From contig JBGANF010000008.1 in assembly GCA_044222475.1 (NCBI GenBank), positions 1-34,687 on the forward strand: DNA of 34,687 nucleotides, given 5' to 3'. Source of the DNA: Polyangiaceae bacterium (GTDB lineage: Bacteria; Myxococcota_A; Polyangia; Polyangiales; Polyangiaceae). Position numbers and translations under genes: made by a program. The notes under the pieces were generated by a model. The model worked only from the letters and a program-made list of their open reading frames with translations, was not told the DNA's origin and ran no database searches. How positions within the stretch are numbered: the stretch's first letter is position 1; the number at the start of each line of letters is the position of its first letter. Shown one piece after another: positions 9,041-28,678 of this stretch.

Positions 9041-9204
9041 GGCCTACCTCGCGTCCTTGCAGAACGTGCTCATCTCACCATGACAAAGCAAGCCGCGCGC
9101 CGGGTTCATTCCCTAGAAGTTTAGCAGAGATCCGGCCGCGTCCACTACCCGGACTGGATCACCGAAGGCTCAGCAGCGGATAGCCGAGAGACCTGTCCAT
9201 ATGG

Positions 9205-9933
9205 CTATGATGGCGCCATCTTGGCGAGGGTTGCTTTGGCCATGCGTACCTCGCCAGCCAGGGCGATCGCCATCGCGGCGCGTGCGGCCTCGGTGCGACG
9301 GACGAACGCGTCGAGGTAGCGCTTCGCGACGCCGAACTCGCCAGCCGCGTAGGCGAGGTGCCCGAGCACGAAGCGCCCGTACCCTTGACCACACGGTGCC
9401 GTCGCGAGCTCGTCGATCGTGCCCTGGAGGTCGTTGACGCGCTCCCCCGCCGAGATGCGCGCGAGGGCGAGGTGAGCCCGGTAGAGCGGCTTGTCGCGCG
9501 TGCCCCAACGCACGGCGCGCTGGAGCGCGGACACCGACTCGTCGTAGCGATGCGCGAGGAACAGCACGCTGCCGAGGGTCCACAGATGAAACGGCCGGCG
9601 CGACGCCGGGCCGCGCCGCGCCGCGGCGCGAAGGTGGGATACCGCCTCCTCGAGCTGGCCGCTCGCGAGCGCGGCCCGCGCGGCGTCTTGGTGAAGGACG
9701 TCGGGGAGGATCTCCAGCTCGAGCGCGCTCTCCACGGTCTCGAGGGCGGCGTCGAACCGCTCGGCCTCGAAATACGCGAGGTAGAGCTGGCGCAGCAGCA
9801 TCGCGTGCGTCGTCCGATCGATGGGAGCGCGGGCGGCGAGGCCCTGCTTGGCGAAGCGTGCGCGAGACGACCAGGACCGCGCGGTCATCGCACGTTGGAG
9901 GAGCTCTTCCGGTCTGGGCACGCGGCCAGGCAT
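9205..9933 (-). CDS. TPR-like (all-helical Ala/Leu-rich repeat) hypothetical protein
   Basis: Protein-like helical repeat composition. The opposite-strand ORFs are RG-rich junk. No catalytic motifs recognised. Confidence 0.5.
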   Translation of the reverse strand: MPGRVPRPEELLQRAMTARSWSSRARFAKQGLAARAPIDRTTHAMLLRQLYLAYFEAERFDAALETVESALELEILPDVLHQDAARAALASGQLEEAVSHLRAAARRGPASRRPFHLWTLGSVLFLAHRYDESVSALQRAVRWGTRDKPLYRAHLALARISAGERVNDLQGTIDELATAPCGQGYGRFVLGHLAYAAGEFGVAKRYLDAFVRRTEAARAAMAIALAGEVRMAKATLAKMAPS

Positions 9934-10020
9934 GGGCCGAAATCATTGTAGCATCCAGGTTTTTCGCGCGCACAAGCGGTTTCCACTCTGCACCCGGCGT
10001 GCTAATTCGCCCTACCTGTC

Positions 10021-10638: not shown

Positions 10639-10962
10639 TCACTTCTTCTTCACGGCGCGGCCGCTGAAGACCTGCTTGCCGTTCTCCATCGACGGCTTGT
10701 CCGATACCTGCCACACGGCGTCGCCGCCGAGCTTGCACACCTGATCGAGGAGCTCGCGCATGCAGTCGTCTTCCTTGACGAGCGTCGCATCGCACGACGC
10801 GCGAACGGGACCGATGTTCGTCGTCGCGACGTTCGGCGCGTCGCGGTAGACCTCGACGTCACAGCCGGCGGGCCGCTCGGGGAAATTCGGGGTCGCGTTG
10901 TGACCGCCGCCGCATGCCGCGAGAGCGAGCGCGCCAAGGGTGAGCGTGCCGATGAGTCTCAT
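10639..10962 (-). CDS. Small lipoprotein with 5 Cys (unrelated to the A/B family)
   Basis: [20 protein letters not shown] signal peptide and lipobox. Only the last 107 codons of the track ORF 10639..11346 are protein-like. The ATG overlaps the glyQ stop as ATGA. It ends 4 nt from the convergent lipoprotein B. Confidence 0.55.
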
Positions 10963-11879
10963 GCGCGTGCCTCCGCGTGCTTGGACTTTCCGTCGAGGAG
11001 AGGAAACCCGAGCGCCTCGCGCTGCGCGAGGTACGCCTCGGCGACGGCCTTCGCGAGGCCGCGGACGCGCCCGATGAAGCGCGCGCGCTCGGTGACGCCG
11101 ATGGCGCCACGAGCGTCGAGGACGTTGAACTGGTGCGCCGCCTTGACGACGAAGTCGTACGCGGGCAGCACGAGTCGCTTCAGCGGCTCCTTCTCGCTCC
11201 CGAGCGCGAGGAGGCGCTTCGCCTCCTTCTCGTAGTGGTCGAAGTGAGCGAAGTGCGCCGCCGTGTCGGCCTGCTCGAAGTTGTACGTGCTCCACTCCCA
11301 CTCGGCGCGCTTCGCGATCTCGCCGTAGCGGACGCCCTTGGCCCACATCACGTCCATGATGTGGTCGACGTCCTGCAGGTACATCGAGATGCGCTCGAGG
11401 CCGTAGGTGAGCTCACCCGAGACCGGCTTGCACTCGATGCTCCCGACCTGCTGGAAGTACGTGAACTGGCTGATCTCCAAGCCATCGAGCCAGACCTGCC
11501 AGCCGAGACCCCACGCGCCGAGCGTCGGCGACTCCCAGTCGTCTTCGACGAAGCGCACGTCGTGCTCTTCCGGCACGGTCCCGATCGCGCGGAGCGACTC
11601 GAGGTAGAGATCCTGGATGTCGATCGGCGACGGCTTGAGGATCACCTGGAACTGGTGGAACTGCTGGAGCCGGTTCGGGTTGTCGCCGTAGCGGCCGTCG
11701 GAGGGACGACGCGACGGCTCGACGAACGCGACGTTCCAGGGCTCGGGGCCGAGCGCACGAAGGAACGTCGCCGGGTTGTAGGTACCGGCGCCGACTTCGG
11801 AGTTGTAGGGCTGAACGATGAGGCAGCCGCGTTGCGCCCAGAAATTCTGCAACCCGAGGATGATGTCTTGGAAGTACAT
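10959..11879 (-). CDS. glyQ: Glycine--tRNA ligase alpha subunit
   Basis: Full-length (306 aa). It aligns by eye with the E. coli GlyQ consensus, for example [55 protein letters not shown] and [24 protein letters not shown]. Confidence 0.92.
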
Positions 11880-11881
11880 GG

Positions 11882-14800
11882 TCAGTCGATTCGAGCGAGG
11901 AGGTCACGCGCGAGTTGGCGTGAAGGGTCGTCGTCGATCGCCCGTTTCAGTAGCATCACCGCGCGCTTGTTGTCGCCGGCTTCGAGCGCGAGCTCGCCGA
12001 GGCGCTCGTAGGCTTCGGCGCGCGACATTGGAGCCTGGGCGCGGAGCATGGTGATCGTACGGAGCGCGCGTGTCTCGATCTCGGTGCTGCCGAGCTCGCG
12101 CGCGACCCACGCGAGCTCGGAGGCGACGGCGCCGTTTTGGCCGTCCATGTCGAGCGCGGTGCCCAGCATCGCGAGGTCGTTCCCGCGATCCCCGGAGGCG
12201 CGGGCTACGCGGGCGAGGCGGAGATAGACGTGCGACAGCTCCTTGCTGCGGCGGCCCTTGTGCTTCTCGAGGACGGCGCGCAGGAGCTCGTCGGCGGCGG
12301 CGAGGTTGCTCTGACCGATGTACGCGTCGGCGAGGAGGCTCGTGCACTCGAGGTCGCCCGGTTTGATCTCGAGCGCGCGGCGGAGGACGTCGGTCGCGGC
12401 GGTGGCGTCGCCGCCTTCGCCGAGGAGGAGCGTCGCGGCAGCGACGTAGAACGGCAGGCGCTTCGGCGGCTCGGGGATGCGCTCGGCCTCCGCGATGCGC
12501 AGCGCCGCGAGCGCCTGAACGTCGCCCAGTGCGCCGTAGATCTCGCCGAGCTTCTCGCTGACGCGTTCGTCCTCGGGGGCGAGGCGATGTGCGCGTTCGA
12601 GTCCGGCGCGCGCATACCCCGGCGAGCCGGTGCGGGTCGCGCGATCGACGAGGCGGAGCGCGATCTCGGCGACCTCGGCGTCGGGGACGACCTCGACGAG
12701 ACGCGCGAGGACGTCGGTCTCGGCGTCGACGCGATCGGCGCGGGCTTCGAGGTCGGCGAGCGCGCGAAGCGCTTCGGCGTCCTGCTCGTGGGTCTGGAGG
12801 ACCTGCTCGAGCTGGTTCCGCGCGTCGTCCGTCCGACCGAGGGCGTCGCAAAGCGTCGCGAGTCGCACGCGGTACGAGCGTCGATCGTTCTCGTCCGTCG
12901 TTCCAGCGGCGGCGAGCGCGAGGATCTCGGAGAGGTGCTCGGCGAGCCGGCCGTCGTCGCGATACGCCGCTTCGCCGCTGTCGACGGCCTCGGCGAAGCG
13001 CTCGGTGCGAAGCGCGAGGCGCGCCCGCTCGAGGAGCCACGCGGCCTGCATCGGGGTGCCGCTGACCTGGGACTCGAGGTTCGACAGCTCCTCCCACGAC
13101 GAGGCGACGTCGTCGGCGTCGGCGAGGGCGCGGTAGTACGCGATGTGGGTCGTGTCGGCGGCTCCTGGGATCGCGTACGCGCCGCGCATCACGCGGACGA
13201 CACCGGCCGTGTCGCTGATCGCTCCGTAGTGGCGCGCTGCCTCGAGGAACGCTGCTTCGGCCTCGGCCGGAACGAGCGCCGCGGCCGTCGTCTCGTGGAG
13301 CTTCGCGAGCTTCGCGGCGTCGTTGCGTTCGGTGTAGATTGCAAGCAATCGCTCGCGGAGGTTCGCGCTCTCCGGAGCGGCGGCGAGACCGAGCTCCAGC
13401 GCGCGCTCTGCGCCCTCGCTGTCCCAGGCTTCGTTGCGGACGGCGAACAGATCGAGGGCGAGCTTTTCGCCTTCCTCGCCCCGGGTCTGCTCGAGCAAGC
13501 GCTCCAGCAGCTCCGCGCGGTCGACGCCCTCCGATGCCGGGATGACGCGCAACGCGCCGCGGAGGAGCTCGGGGTTCTTCGCTTCCCAGTCGAGCCCGGT
13601 CGCGTACACCGAGCGCGCCTTTTCGGCGTCGTCGCCTTCGAGCAGCTTGCCCAGTCGCGCGGCGACGGTGGCGACCCCCGGAGCGTCGGCGCGGTCGCGC
13701 GCGGCTTCGAGTCGTCGTTCGAGGAGGGCGACGAGCTCGCTCTTGTCACCGCTGCCCTCGAGCAGGTCGACGAGGACCGTCGCCGCGTCTTCGGAGAGCG
13801 GATCCTCTTCGAGCACTTCGCGCAGCTCGGCGATCGCTTCGGTCGCTCGATCGAGCGCGGTCGCGAGCAGCTTCGCGTGCTCGACGCGGAGGGCGCTTCG
13901 CTCCGGGGATGCCGAGTGGAGCGCCGCCGTCGTACGCAGAGCTTCTTCGAGCTCCTCCTTCGTCCCGTGGGTTCGGAGGAGCGCGAGCAACGTGCCGCGC
14001 AGCTCGAGGTCGTTGGGCTCGGATGCGAGCACGGCTTCGATCGCCTCCCGCGCGATCGCTGGCGTCGTCCCGGCCGCCTGCGCGACTTCGAGGCGGAGCT
14101 TCCTCGCCTCGGCGGGGGGCAGCGTGGTGGCCGCCTCGAGGCGGAGCCGCGCGGCCAGGGCGGGATCGCTCGCTTCCCGAAGCGTCGCGAGCTCGAGGCG
14201 CGCCCAGCGTCCGAAGTCGCCCTCTTCGCTGATCGAGCGCTCCAGGATCACGTCGGCGACGTCGAGCTTGCCGGCGCGCTTCGCCTCCTCGACGCCTTCT
14301 CGGTAGAGCTCCGGCGTGCCGCAACCGGCGCGTGCCGAGAGCTCGATCGCGCGGAGCAGCCGCTCGGCGTCTCCTCGCGTTCGGGCGATGCGTTCGTAGA
14401 GGTGGAACAGCGCGGGCTCGGTCGCGCCCTCGAGCGCCGGCTCGAGGATCTTCAGCGCGCGCTCGTGATCGCTCTGCTTCTCGAAGGCGGATTTCAGGAG
14501 AGCGGCGCCAGAGGCCCGATCGCCTCCGGGCTTCAGGCGCAGCTCTGCGAGTCGATACTCCGCGTCGGCTGCGGCCTTGGGGTCCTTAGCGCCTTCGGCG
14601 AGCGCCGCGATCAACCGCGCGAGGACCTTCTCCTGGCGCGGGTCGTCCGTCTTCGCGTAGGTGCGATCGAGGGCTCGGAGGACGTCGGCGTTCAGCGGAT
14701 CGGCGTCCGACGCGCGCTCGAGGACCGTTGCGGCCCTCGCGGAGTCGCCGGTCTCCTCTTCGATCACCGCTGCCGCGCCGTGGAGAAGCTGCGCTGCGTC

Positions 14801-17800
14801 CTTGCCGTTCCCTTCGCTCGCGAGGCGATCTCCGAGCGCGAGGAGGCGCTCCACGTAGCGCTCGGTCGTGCCGCTCTTCTTCGCTCCAGCGAGCGCGGCG
14901 TCACGGAGGGCGCGGCTCGCGGGGGCTGCCTCGAGCGCCGTGAGCCGGGTGTCGAGCGCGCCTGCGTCGTCGCCGAGCTCTTCTTGTGCCCGCGCCATGT
15001 CGGCGAGGACTTGGGCGCGCTTCTCTCCACCCTCGGCGCGCTCCAGCCGGCCGCGGAGGGCGCGCAACAGGAGGTCGTTCTTCTTCTTCGCGCGCAACGC
15101 GTCTTCGAGTCGAACGGCCTCCGCGTCGGACGTCGTCGCCGCTTCGAACGCGGACTCGACGATCTCCGCTGCGCGCTCCTTCTCGTCCTGGCGATCGGCG
15201 ATCTCGGCGAGCTCGATGAGGACCTCGCTTCGCGCGACGGTCATCCCGTCGGAGTCGCGGCGCAGCACAGAGAGGAGGGCGCGGTACGAGCGCTCGGCCT
15301 TCTCGAGCTGGCCGTCGTCACGCGCGAGCTCGGCGACCATCCGGAGGATCTCCGGGTTGGCGGGATCGATGCGGGTCGCCGCCTCGAGCTCGGCGAGAGC
15401 GGGCGTGCGCTCGCCCAGCGCGAGCAACAGACGAGCGAGGTGGAAGTGAACCTGCGCGCGCTCCTTGGGGCGTCGTCCGCCGAACGCGTCGAGCATCGAG
15501 CGGAGGAGGGTGCGCGCGTCGTCGGGGCGGCCCGCCGCGGTGAGCGCCTGCGAGAGTCGGAGGCGAAGCGCGCGATCGTCGGGGGCGAGCTCCGCTGCTT
15601 CGGACAGGAGCTCGGCGGCTCGGCCCGGAGCCTGGCATCGCGTGAGCCAGAGATCGGCGGCCTCTTCGAGGCCGCGACGCTTCTCGGCGGGCGTCTCGGC
15701 CTTCGACGCTTGACGGGTGAGCAGATCGGCGAGCGGCGCATAGAGCTCGGCTTTGCGGTAGAGCTCGGCGAGACGCTGCGGGACCTCCGCCGGCGACCCC
15801 GTCGCTTCGACGGCTGCTTCGAGGTGACGCCGAGCGTCCTCCTCGTGACCGGCGGTGACGAGGGCGTCAGTGAGGCGGAGGATGACCCCCGCTCGTCGAT
15901 CGGGGAACTTGTGAAGCAGCCGCTCCAGGTACTGCGCCGCGGCCGAGTGGTCGCCCTGGCGTTCGTGGAGCTTCGCGATGGCGTCGAGGTCGTCGGCCTC
16001 GACGACCAACGGCAGCACGCGCTGGAAGTAGCCGAGCGCCGCCGCCGTGTCGTTCTGGCGGGAGTCGGCGAGAACGGCGGCGCGACGGAACATCGTCGCC
16101 GCGGCGTGGATGTCCCCTTCGGCCTCGGCGAGGTGGGCCTGTTCGGCAAGGAACGCGATGAGCTCCGCGTTGCGACCAGCGGCCTCGAGGACGTCGATGA
16201 TCATCGCCGCGCTCTCGGCGTGGCGCGGCTGCTCGCTGAGGTTGTCCTTGAGGAGCGCCAGCGCTGCGTCGGTCTTGTCGAGCGAGCTCTCGAGCGCCGC
16301 GGCGTCGAGTCGAAGCGGCAGCCGCACCGCAGCGGTCGACGCGCGCGCGATCTGCCGCTTTCGCAGCGCGAGGAGATCCGGGCGGCGATCCAGCGTGCGA
16401 AGCACCGCCGCCAAGCGCTCGGCCGCGAGCGCATCATCGGGGTCGTCGCCTTCGAGCTCGGCGTACAGTCGGAGGGCGGCCTCCTGGTCGCCCACGCGCT
16501 CGAGGGCCATGCGAGCGGCCTCGTGACGAAGCTCGCGCGCGCGCGCGGTCTCGAACGGGAGGCGAGCGGTCTCCGACAGCAGGCTGACGATGCGCTCCGC
16601 GTTGCCTTCTTCGTTGTGGATGCGCACGAGCTCGCCCATCGCCCACTCGACGTACTCTCCGGGGTGGCGCGGGGAGCCCTGGGTCAGCGGCGCCTCTTCG
16701 GTGTCGGCTTCGCCGACCCAGCGCTCGGAGGCGAGCTTCAGGAGGCGTTCGAGGATCGTCTTCGCGAGCCCGCGGTCCACCACGACACTCGCGGCGACGT
16801 CCGCCGCCTCGCGCAGGAGCTCGGGGTCGCCGCCGGTCGCCTGCGACAGGCGCAGCAAAGTCTCGATCAGGGGGCGCCCTCGGGTGCGACGCTGGAGCTG
16901 AGCGAGCGCCCGGAGGAGGTCGGCGTTCGTACCATCTTGGGACAGCGCGCGGGCGTACGCTGCTTCGGCGGCGTCGGGATCTCCGCGGCGATCGCGGTGC
17001 CACGTCGCGATGCGCGCCTCGAGATCGCGGACGACGTTCGCGGGCAGGCCGCTGCGCTCGGCAAGCGCGGCCTCGAGGGCTCCAGTGGCCGCGTCCCAGC
17101 CGGCGTTGCCGGTGACCCGAGCCTCCAGCTCACCGAGCAGCAGGTCGTCGACCTGCCCGAGCGCGGCAGCTCGGTCGATGATGACGCGCGCGGTCGCATC
17201 CCAACGCTGTACGCGGGCGCCCACGCGAACGGACGCCACTCCCGCGACCTCGTCCAACGGCGCCTCTTCGGCGACCCGGAGGTACAACGTCAGCGCGGTG
17301 CGCGGATCATCGAGGTGTTGCTCGAGCACGTCAGCGAGGCCTTTCCGGAGCCTCGGGATCGCCTCGCCGGTCGTGCCCGAAGCCTCGAGCGTCTCGAGGA
17401 CGGTCCTCAGGACCTCGGCGCGTGCGCGCTGATTGTCCGACACGGCGGCGAGACGCGCGAGGGTCGCGTCGATCGCGATGTCGCCGCGCGAGAGCACGAA
17501 CGCATCGCTGCACGATCGAAACGCGGCGGCGGGGTCGAGGCCGCGATCCTCTTCGAGCTTCGCGGCCTCGAGGAGGATCGCGATTCGCGCTTGGTCGTCG
17601 GCGGCGATGCGAAGTCGGTCGCTCTGGAGCTGCAGCACGTCCCGCCACGCGTCGCGAGCGCGGTGGTCGGCGAGGAGGACGTCCATCGCCGACGTCGCCG
17701 CGTCGCCGTCGCCGAGGAGCGCGGTGAGGCCCGCGATCGCTCCGGGGTGTCCCGACTCGGCTTCGAGCGCCGAGCGGTAGTCCACGACCGCCTTCGCCGT

Positions 17801-20800
17801 CGCTCCCAAGTGCACTCGCCGGAGATCGCCGAGGCGCACGAGGATCGCCGCGCGTGACGCTTCGGGGGCGCTCTCGGCGGCGCGCACGAGGAGCTTGGAC
17901 AGCTTCTTCCAGTGCGATCCGCGCTCGTAGAGGTCGGCGAGCGCGAGCGTGCTGTCCTCGGTCGCGCCGAAGTCGTGCTCGATGCCCTCCCACGCCTTGA
18001 TGGCCGCCTCGTCGTCGGCGAGCTCGCCGCCGAGCAAGCGCGCGGCGCGCACTCGATCGGCCTGCTTGTCCGCTTCGCTCGGCAACAGTCGCGCGCGCCG
18101 CTCGAGCGCCTCGTACAGCGGCCGGTGACGACCGCTCGCCTCGAGAATCGCGACGAGACCGTGAAGCGCCACGAGGTCGGACGAGTCTTCGGCCAGTCGA
18201 GCTTCCCACGCGGCGATGCCGCGATCGATCTCACCGAGCGACGCCGCGAGGCGCGCCGCCTCGCCAAGGGCGCCACGGCGCTCTTCGGTGCGCGTCTCGA
18301 GCTGAGCGATGCGCTCGAGGACCCCGAGTCGCTCCGGTTCGCGTCCGGCGCGCTCGAGCAAACCCTCGAGCGGACGCGCCGCGCGGAGGAGCACCTCGTG
18401 GTCGACGTCGAACGCGAGGACGCGGAAGTAGAGATCGATCGCCCGACCGGGATCGGCGAGGCGGTCGGAGTGCACCACCGCGGCCTCCATGAGCAGCGCG
18501 ACGCGTAGCTCGTCGCCTTCGCACTCGTCGGCGGCTGCGGCGAGGACCTCGGCGAGGCGATCGTGGCGTCCGGTGCGCTCGGCGAGAGAGGCCAATTTCT
18601 GGCGATGGGGGGCCGAGTCGGGCTCGAGCATCACGAGCGAGACTCCGTGCGCCAGCGCAGCGACGTCGTTGCCGATGCGCTCGTAGAGCTCGACGAGCTC
18701 GCGGTGTCGCCGGATGCGCTCCTTCGCGCTCTTCACGTCCTCGAGCTCGACCTCGAGGACACGCGCGAGATCGACGTCGCGTCCGAGCTGGGCGTAGCGC
18801 TCGCGCAGCAACCCGGCGGCGCGTTGGCGCACGAGCACTCGCTTGCTGCGGCTGCTCTTGCCCGGCGGTGGAACCGATGCGCGGGGCGGCGCAACCGAGG
18901 CACGCGCCGGCGGAACCGACGCGCGGGGCGGCGGGATGGACTCGTACGCCTGGGCGATGCGCTCGCTCAACGGCGAAGAGGTCGGGGGAAGCGTCTTCTT
19001 GAGCTCCTCCGCCGGCGGAGCGGCGGTGAGGATTTGCTCGAGGAGCTCGCGGGTGGTGTCGCCTTCGTCTCCGTCAGCGATCATGGCTTCGACGACGAGG
19101 AGCGCCGACCCTGCGTCCGAGAGCTCGTCGAGCCACAGTCGCGCGATCCGGCCGCGGAGCTCCGCGATCTGCTGCGGAGTCTTTCCGCCGAGCTGCGCCT
19201 CGAGGAGGCCGACGAGCTCGCGGTGTCGGCCGTGGCGCTCGTAGAGGCGCTCGAGCGAAGCGATCAGTCGATCGTTCTTCGGTTTTCGGAGGAGCAGCGC
19301 TTCGAGGTACCGCATCGCGCGGTCCGCGTTCTTGGCGAAGTCCTTGGCGATCTGAGCGGCGTCGGCGAGGAGCTCGACGCGCCGCCCGTCGTCCAGATCG
19401 GTCGCGAGGACGCGGTCGTAGAGCACGAACAGCTCGTCCCAGCGCTCGGCCGCGTCGTAGAGGAGCTTGAGGCGATCGAACGCCCAACCGCCCGGATCGA
19501 CGGTGACGATTCGATCGAGGATCTTCACCACGCCCGTTCGCTCTTCGAACCACTCTTCGTGGAACGCGACGGCGCGCTGGCCGAGCTCCTCCGCCTGTTC
19601 ACGATCGGAAACCCGCGCCACCACGCCCTGGTAGAGCTCCGCGAGATCGAGCGGCTGATCGAGATCGCGGGCGAGCTGCTCGGCGCGATCCCATCGATCG
19701 GCCACGTTGGGCAGCTCGTCGAGCGCCCGCAGGATCGCGGCGAACTCTTCCTTCGGTCCGCGAGCGCTCGCAGCCTCGATCGCGCGATCGTGCCAGGCCG
19801 CACGCCGCTCGGGCGACGCGGAGCGTGCGCCTCGGAGCAGCGCGTCGAGCGCGCGCGATTGCGCCTCGGCGTCGCCGGCCTTCGCGATCGTCTCTTCGAG
19901 CAGCGCAGCGGCCGCGTCGCCGGCCTCGGGATCGGCGACGAGGTCGGCGGTGAGCTTCAGGGCCTGTGCATCGTCGGGAGCGAGCGCGAGCACCTTGCTC
20001 AGCTCGTCGAGGGCCTCGCGAGCGCGGCCGCCTTGCGAGACGAGGATCGCCGCGACGTCGCCGCGGATGCGACGCGCACGGTCGGCGTCGGCCCCGTTCA
20101 GTTGATCGCGCAGAGACGCGAGCGCGCCATCGACGTCGCCGCGGGCGAGCGTGATGCGCGCGATCTCGGTCGCGGCTCCGGTCGCCGGATCGACGACGTT
20201 GGCCTCGCGGTAGAGCTCGAGCGCGCGATCCGTGTCCTGGAAGCGGGTCTCCGCCGTGCGTGCCCAGTCGAACAGCACGACCCCTCGCTCGGGCCCGCCC
20301 GCGCGTCGAGCGCGCTCGCTGAAGAGCCACTCCCAATCGTCGCGCGGCGCCGACTCGGGGTGGGTTTGGAACAGCAGCCCCATCTGGGCGAGCGCGTGGA
20401 CGCGGATCGCGTCCGCCACGCGATCGTTCTCCGCGAGCGCGCGGAACGACGACGCGGCGTCACCGATGGCGTCGGGGAGGTTCGCCAGCACGGCGGCGCG
20501 CTCGAGGAGGATCGGGGCTCGGGCATCGACGTCCGCGATTTGGGCGAGCGCGCCGTCGACTGCGCGCAAGAACACGTCCGTGTGTCCGCTCTCGCGCGCG
20601 AGTCGCGACGCGAGGGCGAGGGCTGCGGGATCTTGAGGCGCGTCGCCGAACGCGCGCATCGCTGCGTCGAACGCGCCGTCGCGATCGCCGCAGCGCTCGA
20701 GCGCGCTGGAGAGGTGCAAGAGCGCGTCGCGTCGCTCCTCCACCGTCGCGGCGGCTTCGACGCGAGACGCGTAGAGCTCGGGGAGGAGCGCAGTCTCGCC

Positions 20801-23800
20801 GCCGTTCTCTGCGATGGCGATCAGCTTGAGGGTCGCGTCGCGATCGTAGGGGGCGATCTTCCGGATGCGCTCGAAGAGACGGCGCGCGGTCTTGATGTCG
20901 TCCACCTTCTCGGCGATGGCGGCGGCGCGATGGAACGCCGACACCGCGCCGGCGATCTCGCTTCGCTCGACGAGCACGCTGCCGAGGCGAGTGAGCCACA
21001 TCGTGCGCTCCTCGTCGTTCTCCGAGGCATCGGCGCGGCGGGACATGACGTCACCAAGCAGCGCGCGCTCCTCGAGCTGCTCGGCGACGCGCTCGACGAG
21101 ATCGAGGTCGGTCGCGGTCGCGAGCTCGTCCTCCACGAGGGCGCGCGCGTGGGCGATGGCGCGATCGCGCAGGCCGTGCGCGGTGGCGAGGTCGGCGATG
21201 CGTGCGTGCAGCGCGCGCTCGTCCGCGCCGGGGGCCGTCCGTACGAGCTCGTGTTCGAGGATGCGGCACGCTTCGAGCCACGCGGACGACTCGAGGTACA
21301 GCGCGAAGAGAGCTTCGGCCGACCCACGGTCGTCGGGATCTTCCTCGAGCGCTCGCACGAGGGTGGCTTGCGCTGCGGTCACGTCACCGAGCTCGGCTCG
21401 CTGGAGCTGCGCGATCCCGGCGAACAGGGTGCGGCGCTTCGCCGGGTTCTGCTCGACCTGGAGCGCGCTCTGGTAGAGCCGCAGCCGATCCTCGGGGGTT
21501 CCCTGGTCACGCAGGAGGAGCTCCACGCTCGCCATCACGTCCGGCGACGAAGGAGCGAACGCGAGCGCGCGCTGGAACGCGTCCAGGGCGCCTGCGCGAT
21601 CGCCGGCGCTCATCGCCGCGTCTCCCGCAGCGCGAGCGAGGGCGAGGAGCTCCGGGCCATCGACGGCTCGGTCACCGAGCGCGCGCCGAAGGGCGGTCGC
21701 GCGACGACGAGCGCCTTCGTCGCCAGGAGCGAAGTGATCGATCGCGCCGATCCACGGAGCGAGCGCGGCGCCCGACTCGACCGCATCCCCGAGGGCGGCA
21801 GCGGCGAGGTCGAAGGCTCGCGCACGCTCCTGCGGCACCGATTCGGCTGCTGCGAGCGCGGCGGCGGCCGCGGCGAGCCTCGTCGGGGCGTCGGGACCGC
21901 GGGTCGCGCGAACGCATTGAACGTGGAACAGACCGGCGTTCGCGCCCTCGTGGCGGTACACGGGCTCGAGCACGTTCGCGGCGGCGATCGCGAGCGCGTC
22001 GTCCTTGCCGTCGAGCAATCGCTCGAGCGCGTCGCGGCTCGTGGTCTCGTTCGGGTTGGCCTCGAGCGAGGACGCGAAAGCCTCGATCGCCCCGCGGGGG
22101 TCTTGGAGGTTCTGCGCGCGGAGGATGCCGAGAGTCGCGAGCGTGCGCGCGCGCTCCTCGCCCGACCAGAGGTTCGACGCCATCGTCAACGCGCCATCGA
22201 GCGCCGAGAAATCGCGTCGGAGCTCGAGGAGCGGGATCCATCGTGCGACCGCCTCGCGCGAGGGGCCGAAGCGACCGATGAAATCGCGCCACGCCGCGGA
22301 GGCGGCTTCGATGTTGCCCGACGCTTCGGTGAGAGCTTCGGCGGCTCGTTGGAGCAACGCTCGTTGCTCTTCGACGTCCGTCGAGTCTTCCGCGCGAGCG
22401 CGGAGGACCTCTGCCAAGCCGATCGCATCGCCGATGTCGCCGAGCAACGGCTCCAGCGCTGCGAGCGCCTTGGCGCGCGCCGGCGTGTCGAGGAGCGCTC
22501 GCCACGAGCCGATCGCCCGAGCGGGATCTCCGAGAGGTCCGGCGGCGAGCGCCGCGAGCCGCTCGGCCGCGGCGAGGCGGCGATCGGGCTCGGGCTCGAC
22601 GCGCGCCATGCGATCGAGCATGTCCGCGAGCGATGCGTTGTCCTCTTCTTCCTCGTAGAGGCGTGCGAGCGCGCGCACCGCGCCGAGGGTCGCCTCGTCG
22701 GTTGCTCCCGGCACGGAGAGCGCGCTCGAGAACGCCGCGCGAGCGCGGCGCACGTCGCCGTTGGCGAGCAGGAGCTCGCCGCTCGCCGTGCTCAGGCGCG
22801 CGCGTGCGTTCGGATCCTTGGCCAAGCCGAGAAGCCGCGTGAGCGTCTTGGCGCTCGCCTCGTGCTTGCCGAGGACGCGAGTGAGGTTGACGTAGCGCTC
22901 GACGAGAGCACCATCGTTGGGATCGAGGCCGAGCGCGGCGTCCGCCGCCTCGTAGGCACCGGCCGGATCGTCGAGGTGGTCTTCGCGCAGCGCCGCGAGC
23001 GCGCGAAGGACGAACGCACGCCTCGGTCCGCGCGCTTGCTCGAGCTCGAGCATGTAGTAGCGCGCCGCATCGGAGTACGAGCCTGCCATCTGAGCGGCGC
23101 CCGCGAGCGCGGCCGCTGCTCGCGCGACAGTGGCGCGACCTTCGAGGAGCTGCACCGCGACGTCGTGAGCGCGCACGTCGTCCGGGTGCTTGGACAGGAT
23201 CCACTCGACGTGCGGGAGGCTGCGCTCGAGCTCGCCGACGCCGGCGTAGGCGTCGAGCAGCTTCCAGCGCATGTCGAGCTGAACGTCGTCGGCCGGCGCC
23301 GGGTCGTGGGTCAACGCTTGCTCAAGGAGCTTCGCGACCTCGCGCGGCCGATTCGCGCGAGCGAGTGCGTCGAGGAGACGCGCTCGTGCCTCGTCGTCCT
23401 TGGGATCGATTCGGACGAGCACGGTCAGCGCGTCGGCGACCTTGTCGACGGCGTCGACGCGCTCGTACGCATCTGCGGCCTTCCGATAGAGGTTCACCTG
23501 CTCGGCGCGCGGTCTGTGCGACGCGAGCTCGGCGTACATGTCTCCGATTCCGATGAAGTTTCCGTCGCGCGCGAGGATCTCCTCGCGTCGGGCGAGCGAG
23601 CCTGCGTGAGTCGGAACCGCGGCGAGCGCTCGGTCGAGGTACGCGGCGGATCCCATCTCGTCGCCGAACGCGTCCCCGAAGAACACCGCGGCTTGGAACA
23701 TGAACTCGGCGACGACGCCGGCCTGGAGCGTGCGCAACCGGCGGTCGCCGGTGAGCTGCTCGAACGCGAACGCGAGCTCGGCGAGGCGTTGATCGCGCTG

Positions 23801-23962
23801 AGCCGCTTGCCCGAGGCGATCCCATGCACCGTCGTCGAGCTGTCCCTTGCTCATCGCGAGAAGGAACGCGTCCAACACATCGGCTTCGTTTTCGAGGCGG
23901 GTATCGAGCGATGCGAGGACGGCTGCTAGTCCACCGGTCGCGCGGTTACGAGGTTCGGTCAT
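11882..23962 (-). CDS. Giant (4026 aa) all-alpha TPR-like repeat protein, function unknown
   Basis: A single uninterrupted 12,081-nt ORF. Its translation is consistently helical and Ala/Leu/Glu/Arg/Asp-rich, with recurring TPR-like hairpins (for example ...[32 protein letters not shown]...). The reverse-strand ORFs (1906 aa and 1788 aa) are RG/RR-rich artefacts. The stop lies 2 nt before the glyQ start. It contains one short 8-aa internal repeat, [23 protein letters not shown]. No catalytic motif recognised. Confidence 0.8.
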
Positions 23963-24043
23963 GTCCCTGTCGCGCGCTTGGACGACGAAGCGCGGACCTC
24001 GAAGGGTATCAAGGTCGGGGAATGCAACCTACCGCACTGACGT

Positions 24044-25339
24044 TCAGGTCGCGATCGTGCGGTATGGATCGCCCGACGAGGGCGTATTGCCGTTTTTCCC
24101 TCGAATGAGGCCGGCCGCGCGGGTCGCCACGACGGTGCCGATCCCCAGGAAGACGACCGCGAAGGTGACGATTCCACCGATCCACGGCAGCGAGCCGAGG
24201 ACGAGGAAGAGTGCGCAACCCACGAGGAGGTGGACGTGCGGGCTGTCGCTGCGGTGCCCGAGCAGGGCCTTGCCCGCCGTCGCGAGCACGGCACACACAC
24301 CCGCGTAGCTCGCGAACACGGCGGCAGGAACGGCGACCACTGCAACGGGGATTCCGATCACGCTCACGCAGAGCGCGACGACGAGGACGATGCCGGCGAT
24401 GAGGCCGACGATGCCCATCGCGAACGTGCGCATCGGTCGCGCGGCGACCTCGGCGCGCAGCGTGTCCATGCGCTGACCGGCGAGGGCGAAGAGGACGGCG
24501 CCGAAGACGAAGAGGAGCGCCGAGCGCGCGAGCGCGTCGCCGATCTGCTTCAGCACGCCGGACTTGTGCTCGCCGTCGCCACCGACGGTCACCGCCGATC
24601 CGACGACCGACTTCGAACCGCGATTCAGCACGCCACCGACGACGCCGACCTGGCCGTCGATCTGAGCGTCGTCTTCCACGTCGAGCTCGCCGCCCACCGC
24701 CGTCGCGTTTCCGACGATGTGGGCACCCTTCACGACCTTCAGCGTCCCGCCCGTGACGACCGCGTTGCCGGTCACCGTTCCTCGGACCGTCAAGTCGCCG
24801 CCGACCACGCTCACGTCGTGAACGATTTCGTTCGCCTCGATGACGGCGTCGTCGCCGTTGACGACGCGGTCCGATCCGCGGACCGACGGGAGCGGTGCGG
24901 CCTTGAGCGCCGCGGAAGGTGCCTCGAGCGGCGCTGCGTCCGCCTCAGCGGCGGTCGCGGCCGGTGCGGGCGCCGCCGTCTCGGCGCTGCGAACCGAGAC
25001 GAGTGCGCCGTCGCGCTTCGCGGTCCACTTTCCGTCCGCGAGGACGATGTCGAGGATCTTCGACGGGCTCTCGTCCTTCACGTGAAGGTCGATGCGGTCC
25101 TTGTCGCCGTCGACGTCGTCCATGCGGAGGACCAGGTTCCACCCCGCTGCCTCGGCGAGCTTGGTCAGCGCGTCGTGGCGAGAGACGTGCGCGAGGTCGA
25201 GCGAGACCTTCTTCTCCTCGGCGGGCGTCGGCCAGGTGCCGGTGCGCTCGACGTCGGCGAACGCGAGGGACGTCGTCGCGAGCAGCGCGGCGAGGGTGGC
25301 GGCGAGAGTCACGGGACCTACGGCGACGCGCTTCATCAT
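24044..25339 (-). CDS. Membrane protein: signal peptide + STN-like (secretin/TonB N-terminal type) domain + Ala/Pro linker + bactofilin/DUF4097-like beta-helical repeat + C-terminal 4-TM bundle
   Basis: MMKRVAVGPVTLAATLAALLATTSLAFA signal peptide. VSLDLAHVSRHDALTKLAEAAGWNLVLR...ILDIVLADGKWTAKRDGALVSV resembles the STN signalling domain. VVGGDLTVRGTVTGNAVVTGGTLKVVKGAHIVGNATAVGGELDVEDDAQIDGQVGVVGG resembles polymer-forming/bactofilin or 'putative adhesin' beta-helix repeats. Four C-terminal TM helices. The ATG overlaps the anti-sigma stop (ATGA). Confidence 0.65.
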   Translation of the reverse strand: MMKRVAVGPVTLAATLAALLATTSLAFADVERTGTWPTPAEEKKVSLDLAHVSRHDALTKLAEAAGWNLVLRMDDVDGDKDRIDLHVKDESPSKILDIVLADGKWTAKRDGALVSVRSAETAAPAPAATAAEADAAPLEAPSAALKAAPLPSVRGSDRVVNGDDAVIEANEIVHDVSVVGGDLTVRGTVTGNAVVTGGTLKVVKGAHIVGNATAVGGELDVEDDAQIDGQVGVVGGVLNRGSKSVVGSAVTVGGDGEHKSGVLKQIGDALARSALLFVFGAVLFALAGQRMDTLRAEVAARPMRTFAMGIVGLIAGIVLVVALCVSVIGIPVAVVAVPAAVFASYAGVCAVLATAGKALLGHRSDSPHVHLLVGCALFLVLGSLPWIGGIVTFAVVFLGIGTVVATRAAGLIRGKNGNTPSSGDPYRTIAT

Positions 25340-25839
25340 GACAAGACTCCACGTTGGGTGCGCGACGCGCGCGCGATGATCGCGCCCGAGAGCGCGAGGA
25401 CGGCAAAGACGGAGAACGCGACAGCGGCACCGAACGGACCCTGGGTGAGCGCTGCCGCGATCGCGCCGGCGGCACCGGCGAGCTGCGGAACGAGCTCGGG
25501 GAGCGAGGTCGCGATCGAGAGGGCGTGGAACGAACGATCCGCGAGTGACGGAGCGAGGCCGAGCCCCGCGAGCGCAAGTGCCGCGAGGACGAGGCCGGCG
25601 GGGAAGCGCCGCGCGGCCCGCGTGCGCTCGGCGGCGACCGGCGCGAGAGCGACACCGACTTCGAGGGCGAGCGTCGCGAGGTTCGCGAGTCGACCCGCGC
25701 ACTGCGTGCACGACTCGGCGTGATGCGACGCTTCGTCGCCGACGATCTCGATCTCCCCATCGCCGAGCGCGGCCAGCGCCGCGTCGGAGAGGTGGCCGTC
25801 TTCCAGCCAGAGATCCTGTGGTTGCAACGTGCGACTCAT
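25336..25839 (-). CDS. Anti-sigma factor, zinc-finger (ZAS, HxxxCxxC) type with C-terminal TM region
   Basis: 167 aa. ASHHAESCTQCAGRL is the HX3CX2C zinc motif. Two C-terminal hydrophobic segments. Its start overlaps the ECF sigma stop by ATGA. Confidence 0.7.
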   Translation of the reverse strand: MSRTLQPQDLWLEDGHLSDAALAALGDGEIEIVGDEASHHAESCTQCAGRLANLATLALEVGVALAPVAAERTRAARRFPAGLVLAALALAGLGLAPSLADRSFHALSIATSLPELVPQLAGAAGAIAAALTQGPFGAAVAFSVFAVLALSGAIIARASRTQRGVLS

Positions 25840-26411
25840 GACGACTCCTCGGCGAGAGTCTCCGCCAGCGATCGGCGTGCGCGGAGAATCCAGGTGGCGA
25901 CGGTGCCGACGGGGATGCGGAGCCGGGCCGAGATTTCGGCGTAGCTCTTTCCTTCGGCGTGAAAGAGAAGGAGCGCCTCGCGCATGCCGCCGGGGAGATC
26001 GGCCAGGGCGGCGTCGAGCCGCTTGCGATCTTGGGCATGGGCGAGGCGATCGAAGGGAGAGGGAGCGGAGTCGGGGATGCGATCCGCGACGTCGGACTCG
26101 GAGTCGTCGCTGCGCACGGTGGCGATGCGGGCTCGCGCGCGGTGGACGTCCATCGCGACGTGCTTCGCGATGCCGATCACCCAGGGACGAATCGGCTCGC
26201 CGGCGCGGATCCGCGCGGAGCCCTCGATCGCACGCCGCATGGTCTCGGAGACGGCGTCGTCGACGTCGGCGTGCGTCGGCGCGCAGCGGAGCGCTGACGC
26301 TACGATCGCGCGAACGAGCGGCCGCAGCGCGGCGAGCTCGCGAGGGAGCTCGGTCGCGGCCGCGGACGGCGTGGCGTGGGCAAGGGGAGGGAGAAGCAGC
26401 ACCGCAAGCAT
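25836..26411 (-). CDS. RNA polymerase sigma-70 ECF-family sigma factor
   Basis: 191 aa. Region 2 has PWVIGIAKHVAMDVHR (DNA-melting/-10 recognition). Region 4 HTH is GKSYAEISARLRIPVGTVATWILRARRSL. Confidence 0.85.
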   Translation of the reverse strand: MLAVLLLPPLAHATPSAAATELPRELAALRPLVRAIVASALRCAPTHADVDDAVSETMRRAIEGSARIRAGEPIRPWVIGIAKHVAMDVHRARARIATVRSDDSESDVADRIPDSAPSPFDRLAHAQDRKRLDAALADLPGGMREALLLFHAEGKSYAEISARLRIPVGTVATWILRARRSLAETLAEESS

Positions 26412-26483
26412 CGGTCATCTGCTCTTCGCGGCAACAGGGCCGAAATTTCACCCGCCGGCCCGCTCGACTGCAATGGCCCGAAA

Positions 26484-27374
26484 CTACTGAGTTTTGTGGG
26501 TGACGCCCAAGACGTTCGGGATCGACCAGAAGGTGTCGTTCTTGTCGTCCGCGAGGAACCCGGTCTCGAAGCTGCCCATCTCCGACACCGCACCGGAGAC
26601 CCACAGCGACGCCTCGGGGCCACCCTCGACGTGCATGGCGGTGTCGAGGTCGAGCTCGGGAGCGGCGAGGATCTTCGCGAGCTCGGTCATCGAGTAGGGC
26701 GTTCGCGCGTGAATGAACACGACGTTGCCCTTGCGATCCGTGCCGAGCACCGCGGCGCTGAAGAGCTTCGGATCCTGCCACGCGATCGGTTTCCGATCGC
26801 AGTCGAGGAGCCGGTAGTTCTGGACGACGGAGCGGTACTCCGTGCGCAGCCGCGCGAGATCGAAACCGGCGCAGTCGCGCCCGACCGAGACGACGGGCGG
26901 CGCGCCGGCGTTCACCGGATCCCACGCGAAGAAGCCGCCGAACTTGTGGTTGTCGGAGCCGTTGTTCGTCACCGGGCCGGACACGAGCAGCCCGACCGAC
27001 CGGCGATCTTCGCCGTACATCGACGCGTTGATCACCGCGACGAGCTTCGCGTCCTTCGCCCACGCGGGTGCGGTGCGAGAACCGCCCTCGACCTGTGCGG
27101 TGTGGAGCTCCAGCGCGAGCTTCGTGGGGTCGATGCGGACGATCGTGACGCATCGATCGCCGACGCCGGCGCTCGACGCCAAGGGTGCGAGGTACCGATC
27201 GACGGTGAGCCCCGGCTCGACGGTCGTGCGGAGCGCCGGGGAAGCGCACTTCGCCGGCGTCGCCGTCGGGCTCACGGAGTCCGCGCTCGCGGTGCTCGGC
27301 TTCGGGTCGTGCTTGCAGGCGCCTGCGGCGACGACGGTCACCAGGACGATCGTCGCGCCGCGCGCGAGGTTCAC
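26484..27374 (-). CDS. Lipoprotein, phosphodiester glycosidase (DUF2233/NAGPA)-like, tentative
   Basis: GTG start overlapping the upstream stop (GTGA). Signal peptide with AAGAC. ~270 aa periplasmic domain. Family assignment is from general resemblance only. Confidence 0.5.
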   Translation of the reverse strand: MNLARGATIVLVTVVAAGACKHDPKPSTASADSVSPTATPAKCASPALRTTVEPGLTVDRYLAPLASSAGVGDRCVTIVRIDPTKLALELHTAQVEGGSRTAPAWAKDAKLVAVINASMYGEDRRSVGLLVSGPVTNNGSDNHKFGGFFAWDPVNAGAPPVVSVGRDCAGFDLARLRTEYRSVVQNYRLLDCDRKPIAWQDPKLFSAAVLGTDRKGNVVFIHARTPYSMTELAKILAAPELDLDTAMHVEGGPEASLWVSGAVSEMGSFETGFLADDKNDTFWSIPNVLGVTHKTQ

Positions 27375-28630
27375 TTCGCGCGCTCGGCGACGAGCGCCTC
27401 GAGGCGTTCGGTCGCGCGCTCGAGGACCGGCATCGAAGGCCCGAACGAGAACCGCACGTGGTCCTTGAAGCGCGACGCGCGCCCGCTGCGGCGCTTGCCC
27501 GGGTTGACGTCGAAGAACTCTCCGGGGACGACGATGACCTTCTTGTCGAGGGCGGCGCGGAAGAGGCCCATCCCCTCGTCGAGCGGTGGCGGGAGGTTCT
27601 TCACGTTGCCCCAGACGTAGAACGTCCCGTCGGGGACGCGATCGAACCGAACGCCGAGGCGCTCGAGGCGCGAGAGCATGCGGTCGCGCTTGTCGCGGAA
27701 AGCGTGCTGAATCGCCCAGGTCTCCTTCACGACGTGGTCCTCGGCGAGGAGCGGGATCGCGGCGCGCTGGAGCGGCTTGCTGCCGCCTCCATCGAGGAAC
27801 GACCCTGCGCTCGCGAGCGCTTCCATGATCCGCTTCGGTCCGAGCGCCCAGGTGACGCGCCAGCCGGGGTAGCGCCAGTTCTTCGTGAAGCCGTCGAAGA
27901 CGACGACCGGGTCCTTGTCGACGTCGGCCACGTAGCGAGCCGCGCTCTCGACCGGGAGCACGCCGGGCTTCGTGCGGTAGACGTAGTGCGAGTAGAACTC
28001 GTCGAAGAGGAGCGTGCAGTCGAGCTCGCGAGCGACGCCGACCCAGCGCTCGAGCTCTTCGCCTTCGATGAGCTTCCCCGTCGGGTTGCACGGGTTCGAG
28101 AGGAGGATCGCCGACAGCCCGCGGCCGTTGATCTCGCGGCGCAGATCGTCGTGCGAAAACGCATAGCCGCGATCGCCTTCGAGCAAGATCGGGATCGACG
28201 TGAACGCCTTGAAGATGTCGAGCAGCTCCTCGTACGCGGTGTAGTCGGGGAGGAAGTGCCCGAGGTTCACTTGCGAGAGGCTCGCCGCGGCGCGCGTGAG
28301 CGCAGCGCGTCCGCCGCCGGACACACACACGTTCTCCGCGGTGTACTGGGACTTCATCCCTTTTCGGTACAACGTGTTGTAGAGGTCGGCGATCGCCTCG
28401 CGCAGCTCGGGCAGGCCGGCGACCGGCGCGTACTCCTGATCGTCGGGGTGGATGTGGATGTCGTGCACGCGCGGCGGAGACCCGGGAAGATCGCCGGTCT
28501 CCGGTTGCCCTTGGCCGAGGTTGCACCAGTCCGGGTGAGCCGACGAGAACCCGAGCTTCGTCGCCTCCGAGGTGACGAAGATGACGCCGGTGCGCGGGAC
28601 GGTACGGAAGGCAGTGAGCTCGTCGGCCAT
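27371..28630 (-). CDS. PLP-dependent aminotransferase, class I/II fold
   Basis: 419 aa from the ATG at 28630 (the track start at 28672 is TTG). SNPCNPTGK substrate/PLP region, FDEFYSHY, and the catalytic Lys in VVFDGFTKNWRYPGWR. Typical fold-type-I architecture. Confidence 0.8.
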   Translation of the reverse strand: MADELTAFRTVPRTGVIFVTSEATKLGFSSAHPDWCNLGQGQPETGDLPGSPPRVHDIHIHPDDQEYAPVAGLPELREAIADLYNTLYRKGMKSQYTAENVCVSGGGRAALTRAAASLSQVNLGHFLPDYTAYEELLDIFKAFTSIPILLEGDRGYAFSHDDLRREINGRGLSAILLSNPCNPTGKLIEGEELERWVGVARELDCTLLFDEFYSHYVYRTKPGVLPVESAARYVADVDKDPVVVFDGFTKNWRYPGWRVTWALGPKRIMEALASAGSFLDGGGSKPLQRAAIPLLAEDHVVKETWAIQHAFRDKRDRMLSRLERLGVRFDRVPDGTFYVWGNVKNLPPPLDEGMGLFRAALDKKVIVVPGEFFDVNPGKRRSGRASRFKDHVRFSFGPSMPVLERATERLEALVAERAK

Positions 28631-28678
28631 GATCCTCGCTGGTTCGTACTCGATTCTCCGCGCGACCACCAAGCGATC

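Follow-up and report, generated by a model that had tools for sequence, protein, structure and literature searches.

Three overlapping genes on a 34,687-nucleotide (nt) stretch of DNA from a Polyangiaceae bacterium (GenBank assembly GCA_044222475.1, contig JBGANF010000008.1; this whole stretch is referred to below as the window) encode an extracytoplasmic function (ECF) sigma factor, a predicted membrane-anchored anti-sigma factor, and a membrane protein of the Pfam family DUF8173. We propose, with a probability of about 0.6, that this trio is an autoregulated ECF sigma switch whose anti-sigma is split over two polypeptides, and that the giant tetratricopeptide repeat (TPR) gene lying directly downstream is a neighbor with a promoter element of its own. 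The evidence comes from conservation of the trio, from a motif upstream of the sigma gene, from natural fusions of the second and third proteins, and from the surroundings of giant-gene orthologs.

A conserved gene trio in Polyangia

The trio occupies the minus strand of the window, which has a G+C content of about 70% and corresponds to a contig in the metagenome assembly GCA_964652985.1. Its genes are numbered here in reading order:

25836-26411, minus strand: ECF sigma gene (gene 1), an open reading frame (ORF) of 191 aa
25336-25839, minus strand: predicted anti-sigma gene (gene 2), an ORF of 167 aa
24044-25339, minus strand: DUF8173 gene (gene 3), an ORF of 431 aa

The TGA stop codon of the sigma gene and the start codon of gene 2 share an ATGA at 25839-25836, and the stop codon of gene 2 (also TGA) and the start of gene 3 share another at 25339-25336. 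A preliminary description of the window had pointed to these overlaps, and its coordinates hold. A scan of one genome per species recovered 79 loci with a gene 3 relative, all of them from Polyangia (Polyangiaceae, Sorangium, Polyangium, Labilithrix, and Byssovorax). Because overlaps of 4 nt or 1 nt are usual at both junctions across these related loci, the ATGA overlaps in the window reflect more than chance. Enough upstream DNA was available for 74 of the loci. In 70 of these, gene 3 is immediately preceded, in the same orientation, by the sigma gene and the anti-sigma gene, in that order. The four exceptions comprise three full-length orphan paralogs of gene 3 (at loci L029, L061, and L071) and one shortened locus, L079. 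The trio is a self-contained unit conserved across Polyangia.

The shortened locus has a structure of its own. At about 9919-10495 of L079, the ECF motif described below is followed by the opening codons of a sigma-like ORF (ATGCTG...), which lead straight into the C-terminal half of a gene 3 homolog; this locus either arose from the trio by deletion or is misassembled.

Gene 1 encodes an ECF (group 4) sigma factor, as the preliminary description had called it. Its product matches the Pfam families Sigma70_r2 (residues 32-95) and Sigma70_r4_2 (residues 130-182) and scores 71.7 bits against TIGR02937, for which the cut-off is 42.9. It contains only the sigma-2 and sigma-4 regions, and its 191 residues fall within the range of about 170-220 aa that characterizes the group. 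No NCBIfam equivalog matched the protein at its cut-off, and the nearest solved structures are those of SigH and SigE from Mycobacterium tuberculosis.

A putative ECF-type promoter and a predicted regulon

The region upstream of the sigma gene presumably holds an ECF-type, autoregulated promoter. Two features are relevant:

26412-26483: 72-nt region between the stop codon of a NAGPA-family gene and the sigma start codon
26421-26452, minus strand: putative ECF-type promoter, with a -35 element TGAAAT (26450-26445), a -10 element CGAA (26428-26425), and a 16-nt spacer

Without presetting any pattern, we counted all dyads of a 5-mer, a gap, and a 4-mer in the 200 nt preceding each of 70 sigma genes. 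GAAAT-N17-CGAA emerged in 46-51 of the 70 orthologous upstream regions, and the same count on control regions returned G+C-rich noise only. The motif has the consensus cTGAAATTTc-N-GCGAA, takes the form TGAAAT-N16/17-CGAA upstream of the sigma genes, and ends about 13-17 nt before the sigma ATG. A position weight matrix (PWM) for it produced a single match in the window, of 27.3 bits at 26452-26421, with the next best site at 8.0 bits. The search for an autoregulated promoter in the 72-nt region that the preliminary description had suggested thus yields exactly one motif. Over 2.95 Mb of related loci, the PWM located 68 sites upstream of sigma genes and about 20 weaker ones scattered elsewhere. 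Such a distribution is what one would expect of an autoregulated ECF sigma factor. ECF sigma factors usually control their own expression and are encoded together with regulators, targets, or both (PMC7826278). Our literature search returned no paper on Sorangium ECF promoters that covers this trio, and the main text of the ECF classification paper (PMC7826278) makes no mention of bactofilin, DUF583, or STN.

The same motif recurs at the three orphan gene 3 paralogs, about 90 nt before their start codons (19.5-26.5 bits) and followed by a Shine-Dalgarno sequence. Two of the three come from metagenome-assembled genomes that also hold a complete trio. The minimal regulon predicted from these sites consists of the sigma factor's own operon and the orphan DUF8173 paralogs.

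Spacing and ribosome-binding sites differ among the genes of the trio. Only 13 nt separate the -10 CGAA from the ATG of the sigma gene, and no Shine-Dalgarno sequence is found there, either in the window (26412-26428) or in related loci; gene 2 and gene 3 have GAGGAG and GGAG, respectively, about 7-10 nt before their starts. Because -10 boxes lie 12-17 nt from the ATG, the predicted mRNAs of the sigma gene and of many orthologs of the giant gene would be leaderless or nearly so.

A divergent membrane anti-sigma and its proposed DUF8173 partner

Near its N terminus, the gene 2 product carries the motif H16-x23-H40-x3-C44-x2-C47. This is the arrangement of class I zinc-binding anti-sigma (ZAS) proteins, in which HxxxCxxC is accompanied by a fourth ligand about 23-27 residues upstream. 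HxxxCxxC and the upstream histidine are present in 64/64 orthologs, and in their alignment H16, H40, C44, and C47 are invariant, a property shared only by the start methionine and Asp27. Profile searches gave less. Gene 2 has no significant match in Pfam, its match to the NCBIfam RseA model (E = 0.0027) is far below the cut-off, and among solved anti-sigma factors a profile of its orthologs finds only ChrR and DdvA, weakly. We call gene 2 a divergent membrane anti-sigma of the ZAS type, because the motif is invariant but profile matches are weak; binding of both sigma and zinc is predicted. Of the earlier ZAS call, the motif and its conservation stand, whereas a matching Pfam profile was not found. 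Searched as a single sequence against the PDB, gene 2 matched sensory rhodopsins only, which we rejected as similarity in transmembrane (TM) composition.

A hydropathy scan places two TM segments in the gene 2 product, at about residues 81-99 and 138-156, with a loop of about 38 aa between them on the periplasmic side. The protein would therefore expose very little to the periplasm.

The gene 3 product is predicted to do so extensively. Its parts are as follows, in residues:

7-23: predicted signal peptide
30-122: STN/N0 domain
123-148: Pro/Ala linker (disordered)
156-252: beta-helix
261-406: five predicted TM helices, followed by a cytoplasmic tail ending in PYRT

The family assignment, PF26514 (DUF8173), is a precomputed match carried by the gene 3 product and by all 120 homologs listed; our local copy of Pfam returned no PF26514 match for gene 3, so the assignment depends on the precomputed one. 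In the AlphaFold model (mean predicted local distance difference test score [pLDDT] 80), residues 30-122 reach a pLDDT of about 87-93 and adopt the beta-alpha-beta-beta-alpha-beta-beta order of the STN/N0 fold. Foldseek matched this N-terminal domain to the N0 domain of PilQ (4ar0), DotD (3ady), PupB (9cuv), PupA (2a02), and the N0 domain of GspD (4jtm), at probabilities of 0.92-1.00 and target TM-scores of 0.48-0.68, as well as to the FpvA signaling domain and the FecR-like anti-sigma 4m0n. The beta-helix matched ice-binding and CAP-type beta-helices. Sequence similarity to the STN family PF07660 is slight, at 18.3 bits (E = 0.002) under a gathering score of 28.4, and a precomputed PF07660 match exists in 2 of the 120 homologs listed. 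Model and structure search together back the preliminary description of gene 3 as an STN and beta-helix membrane protein.

Some homologs of gene 3 are named bactofilin-like at the source, and the NCBI name is "polymer-forming cytoskeletal protein." We rejected a bactofilin identity, as there is no PF04519 match at E ≤ 0.1. The model and topology prediction also put the beta-helix in the periplasm, between the signal peptide and the first TM helix, which makes a cytoskeletal role unlikely. A literature search found no paper mentioning DUF8173, and the family has no recorded function.

Natural fusions and a proposed split anti-sigma

A profile of gene 3 searched against 1.84 billion representative proteins returned 12,979 matches at E ≤ 0.001, including 443 at E ≤ 1e-30. 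Of the top 150 DUF8173 relatives, 27 have lengths of 560-690 aa, and the full gene 3 profile aligns to them from about residue 170-200 onward. The additional 170-200 or so N-terminal residues of these 27 proteins are anti-sigma domains, 20 of which keep HxxxCxxC. All five fused relatives that we looked up lie directly after an ECF sigma gene, which they overlap by 1-4 nt, and two of these five sigma genes have GAAAT-N17-CGTA upstream. In the predicted topology of the fusions, the anti-sigma domain is inside and is followed by two TM segments, with a third TM segment at the position of the gene 3 signal peptide, in agreement with the predictions for the two proteins when separate. The fused proteins belong to a sister clade.

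One locus combines both forms. At L165 (2317-3276), an additional short DUF8173 gene of 319 aa sits directly upstream of the sigma gene of a fused-type locus.

Taken with the near-invariant coupling of the two genes and the absence of a periplasmic domain in the anti-sigma, the natural fusions argue that genes 2 and 3 most likely form a split anti-sigma, whose physical interaction we infer. We weighed this proposal against the idea that gene 3 serves purely as regulon output, perhaps encoding a membrane protein that protects the envelope or has a structural role, and that the two-TM anti-sigma is regulated alone, for instance by intramembrane proteolysis. The orphan paralogs, which carry the ECF promoter motif with no adjacent sigma or anti-sigma gene, would be expected under that idea, and ECF operons often include target genes (PMC7826278). 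It accounts less well for fusions of the anti-sigma to gene 3 directly after ECF sigma genes, for a pairing and coupling that is nearly invariant (70/74 loci), and for an anti-sigma with almost no periplasmic domain of its own. The roles of sensor and output are mutually compatible. We regard a pure output role as unlikely.

Seven of the 27 fused relatives (P0230, P0237, P0243, P0246, P0247, P0259, and P0265) have lost the zinc ligands while keeping the homologous helix (...EALAHGR.DL...) and the architecture. Loss of the His and Cys ligands from otherwise intact proteins implies that zinc binding is dispensable for the function of the family. The same seven proteins, with their architecture and sigma linkage intact, count against a further explanation, in which the anti-sigma would be an RsrA-type cytoplasmic thiol or redox sensor that frees sigma when its zinc site is oxidized, and the membrane parts would be incidental. 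That explanation draws on the invariance of the H-x23-H-x3-C-x2-C tetrad in all 64 orthologs and on the similarity of the sigma factor to M. tuberculosis SigH and SigE, both of which pair with ZAS proteins. The ligand set, however, is the His-His-Cys-Cys of ChrR, in which zinc is structural, and the anti-sigma is anchored in the membrane and invariably occurs alongside a large periplasmic partner. We consider redox sensing at the zinc site very unlikely.

A broader extension of the split anti-sigma is conceivable, and we put it forward tentatively. The DUF8173 protein may be the sensory half of an undescribed kind of anti-sigma, made either of one polypeptide or of two from translationally coupled genes, that relays contact with a periplasmic or outer-membrane protein to an ECF sigma through the STN domain, in the manner of cell-surface signaling but with no TonB-dependent transducer; read-through confined to the lineage of the window could then add the giant gene to its output. 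On balance we consider this version doubtful.

The giant TPR gene is not a conserved partner of the trio

Downstream of gene 3, the window contains the following features:

23963-24043, minus strand: intergenic gap of 81 nt between gene 3 and the giant gene
24003-24011, minus strand: candidate extended -10-like box TGATACCCT, which reads TGnTAnnnT and lies 40 nt before the giant ATG
11882-23962, minus strand: giant TPR gene encoding 4026 aa (described from Pfam TPR families and synteny statistics)

The 81-nt distance to the giant ORF given in the preliminary description is correct. That description had gone on to suggest that the giant gene and glyQ may be controlled by the sigma factor, an arrangement in which both would be co-transcribed with the trio by read-through over the gap and so come under ECF (envelope-stress) control. 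Conservation does not support this. Of the 70 gene 3-anchored loci, only 7 have a giant ortholog beginning no more than 500 nt past the trio, and 9 have one within 3.5 kb. A metagenome scan with the N-terminal 350 aa of the giant protein recovered 80 loci, 56 of them non-identical and with at least 1.5 kb of upstream sequence. Gene 3 is directly upstream in 9 of these 56, all in the clade of the window, with giant proteins at least 54% identical; the other 47 have different upstream neighbors, often a ClC channel gene. Viewed from the trio, the next gene differs in Sorangium, Polyangium, Labilithrix, and others and is often convergent, a comparison that is qualitative only, as a gene caller based on third-position G+C content let through antisense ORFs. 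The giant gene thus shows no conserved adjacency or co-orientation with the trio across relatives of the kind expected in an operon.

Some points favor read-through. The genes share a strand and the gap is short, with no terminator-like site and no significantly stable hairpin (RNA fold z = -1.46), and the adjacency is kept in the clade of the window, in seven genome and nine metagenome loci. A looser proximity of 1-3 kb, with one gene between, occurs in L038, L048, L111, and L115.

The motif evidence is harder to reconcile with ECF control. The best score of the ECF PWM in the gap is -8 bits. True sites score 16 bits or more, with a median of 27.5, whereas the 300 nt preceding each of 79 giant orthologs yield at most 12.1 bits and contain no ECF motif. 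The giant orthologs instead keep a box of their own whatever gene precedes them: tGnTACnCTCG...TTCC occurs within 160 nt upstream in 68 of 84 loci, where its regular expression would match by chance in roughly 17% of loci per 160 nt, as estimated from base composition. A G stands at -2 in 97% of the box-bearing loci, and the box is often 12-17 nt before the ATG. Dependence of glyQ on a stress sigma is also unlikely on general grounds, glyQ being a housekeeping aminoacyl-tRNA synthetase subunit. Weighing these points, we judge control of the giant gene and glyQ by this sigma factor to be decidedly unlikely.

The preliminary description had named an independent promoter or a terminator in the gap as evidence against such control. 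A conserved promoter-like sequence element is indeed present, and a terminator was not found. The window copy, TGATACCCT, is one of two occurrences of this 9-mer in the window, where 0.35 are expected, and each copy is just upstream of a long ORF start. The second, at 2436-2444 on the plus strand, is 9 nt before the GTG start of a GYF_2-domain gene of 887 aa (2454-5117, plus strand). Because both copies sit before gene starts, they suggest that TGnTAnnnT may be a common -10 element in this organism, with very short leaders. The giant gene appears to have its own promoter, for which the extended -10-like element is the candidate. Since adjacency to the trio is rare, the upstream box is its own, and no ECF motif precedes it, the giant gene has no conserved linkage to the trio and is best described as a lineage-specific neighbor, not a conserved member of its operon or regulon.

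Other readings of the gap were tried. A simple scan of 23700-26800 for sigma-70 promoters and terminators returned nothing, and a search of the whole window against Rfam gave no match. Inspection led us to reject TTGCAT in the gap as a sigma-54 element. A -35 role for TTGATA was dismissed as well, since the sequence at many orthologous boxes is CGGTAC or GTTAC, only 12-17 nt from the start codon.

Several features of the region between gene 3 and the giant gene can be seen in related loci. Where the trio adjoins the giant gene (L005-L025, L088-L090, L130, and L162), an element CTGAAC...CAGATCGCG stands between the gene 3 stop codon and the -10-like box. Its form in the window (24037-24047, minus strand) is the palindrome CTGAACGTCAG, which overlaps the gene 3 stop and could be a regulator binding site. 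At L005, an ATG-TAG start-stop pair occurs about 13 nt after TACCCT, at the place where other loci start the giant gene, and the real start is about 28 nt further on, as in the window. By motif inspection, a ClC-type chloride channel gene with a CBS-like C terminus lies about 2 kb before the giant gene on the same strand in L094, L100, L110, L115, L125, and L153. It precedes the giant gene in lineages where the trio is not adjacent, and at L115 the order is trio, ClC gene, giant gene. Because the ClC gene is commonly found before the giant gene and L115 has all three in this order, the arrangement in the window may have arisen by loss or relocation of an intervening gene.

Neighboring genes

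On the 5' side of the sigma gene, the window encodes an aminotransferase and a NAGPA-family protein (26484-28672, minus strand), whose genes overlap each other by 4 nt (27371-27374). In many loci (L005-L011, L015, L025, L033, and others), the sigma gene is closely preceded on its own strand by a class I/II aminotransferase gene, and the closest relatives additionally have a gene for a NAGPA-family phosphodiester glycosidase upstream of sigma. Beyond the giant gene, glyQ (10959-11879, minus strand; PF02091, E = 5e-141) starts 2 nt past the giant stop codon (11882-11884). The ORF list contains no glyS-sized ORF after glyQ on the minus strand; the next ORF there encodes a TPR protein of 267 aa (9170-9973).

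Proposed mechanism and points against it

We envisage the following sequence of events. RNA polymerase carrying the sigma factor would start at TGAAAT-N16-CGAA (26452-26421) and place sigma, anti-sigma, and gene 3 on one translationally coupled message. The 167-aa anti-sigma would hold sigma at the inner membrane through its zinc-type (H-H-C-C) class I domain, presenting only about 38 residues to the periplasm. The DUF8173 protein would add the sensory part, consisting of a periplasmic STN/N0 domain and beta-helix on a five-TM anchor, and would join the anti-sigma in the membrane to complete the split anti-sigma. An envelope signal sensed by the DUF8173 protein would then free sigma, leading to increased expression of its own operon and of the orphan DUF8173 paralogs. 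The comparisons themselves establish what the genes encode, that the trio is conserved, where the promoter motif occurs, that fusion proteins exist, and that linkage to the giant gene is not conserved; what the two promoter elements do, what the signal is, and how sigma is freed are inferred.

Several observations weigh against the proposal of a split anti-sigma switch beside an independent giant gene. The two promoter elements are sequence motifs only. The sites behind the PWM were collected with a regular expression, so the invariance of their cores arises partly by construction; the dyad count is free of this bias. The ECF motif at the orphan paralogs fits gene 3 as a pure regulon output equally well. 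One fusion, P0137, falls within the close clade and may be a frameshift artifact. The anti-sigma assignment receives little help from profiles: zf-HC2 (PF13490) was matched weakly by 5 of 37 gene 2 orthologs (best E = 0.11), and the profile of gene 2 orthologs reached the anti-sigma domain of ChrR at E = 0.32 and Myxococcus xanthus DdvA at E = 1.1 in the PDB, neither of which is significant. Finally, with no terminator-like site in the gap, some read-through into the giant gene, or some ECF influence on it, may exist in the lineage of the window.

Pairs of ECF sigma and anti-sigma factors are among the commonest signaling devices of bacteria; a Polyangia genome has dozens of them, and hardly any have been studied. 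One Polyangia ECF group now has a promoter motif, a minimal predicted regulon, and a proposed split-anti-sigma architecture, and the Pfam family DUF8173 gains a first functional context. Stress regulation of the 4026-aa TPR protein and glyQ is unsupported, and the giant gene's own upstream element offers a better focus. We expect moderate interest among specialists in ECF signaling and myxobacterial regulation; as a variant of a very common type of system, the trio holds little general surprise.

Comparison with known systems

The trio shares its basic plan with SigW-RsiW of Bacillus subtilis, RpoE-ChrR of Rhodobacter sphaeroides, and DdvS-DdvA of M. xanthus. In each, an ECF sigma gene is followed by a coupled gene for an anti-sigma with an N-terminal H-x(23-27)-H-x3-C-x2-C motif. 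The putative promoter is likewise of the autoregulated type, with a -35 TGAAAT and a -10 CGAA; the SigW promoter is TGAAAC-N16-CGTA. A distinction is that the Polyangia anti-sigma has no extracytoplasmic or C-terminal sensor of its own and no significant zf-HC2 match, and that the third gene of the trio encodes a distinct, conserved polytopic protein.

The order of sigma factor, sigma regulator, and STN-fold protein recalls FecI-FecR-FecA, a likeness reinforced by the Foldseek matches to FpvA, PupA, PupB, and 4m0n. However, Pfam searches found no FecR, Plug, or TonB_dep_Rec match, and the trio does not belong to the FecIRA type. In place of a TonB-dependent outer-membrane barrel, its third component is predicted to sit in the inner membrane with five TM helices and to carry a beta-helix that is preceded, not followed, by the STN domain.

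A third envelope protein alongside sigma and anti-sigma is also a feature of SigM-YhdL-YhdK of B. subtilis and RpoE-RseA-RseB of Escherichia coli, in which the third co-transcribed protein modulates the anti-sigma. Gene 3 has no relationship to YhdK or RseB in sequence or fold and, unlike them, exists elsewhere fused to an anti-sigma domain. Because of these fusions, we favor the view that genes 2 and 3 correspond to a single polypeptide that has been split, in preference to an anti-sigma with an accessory modulator.

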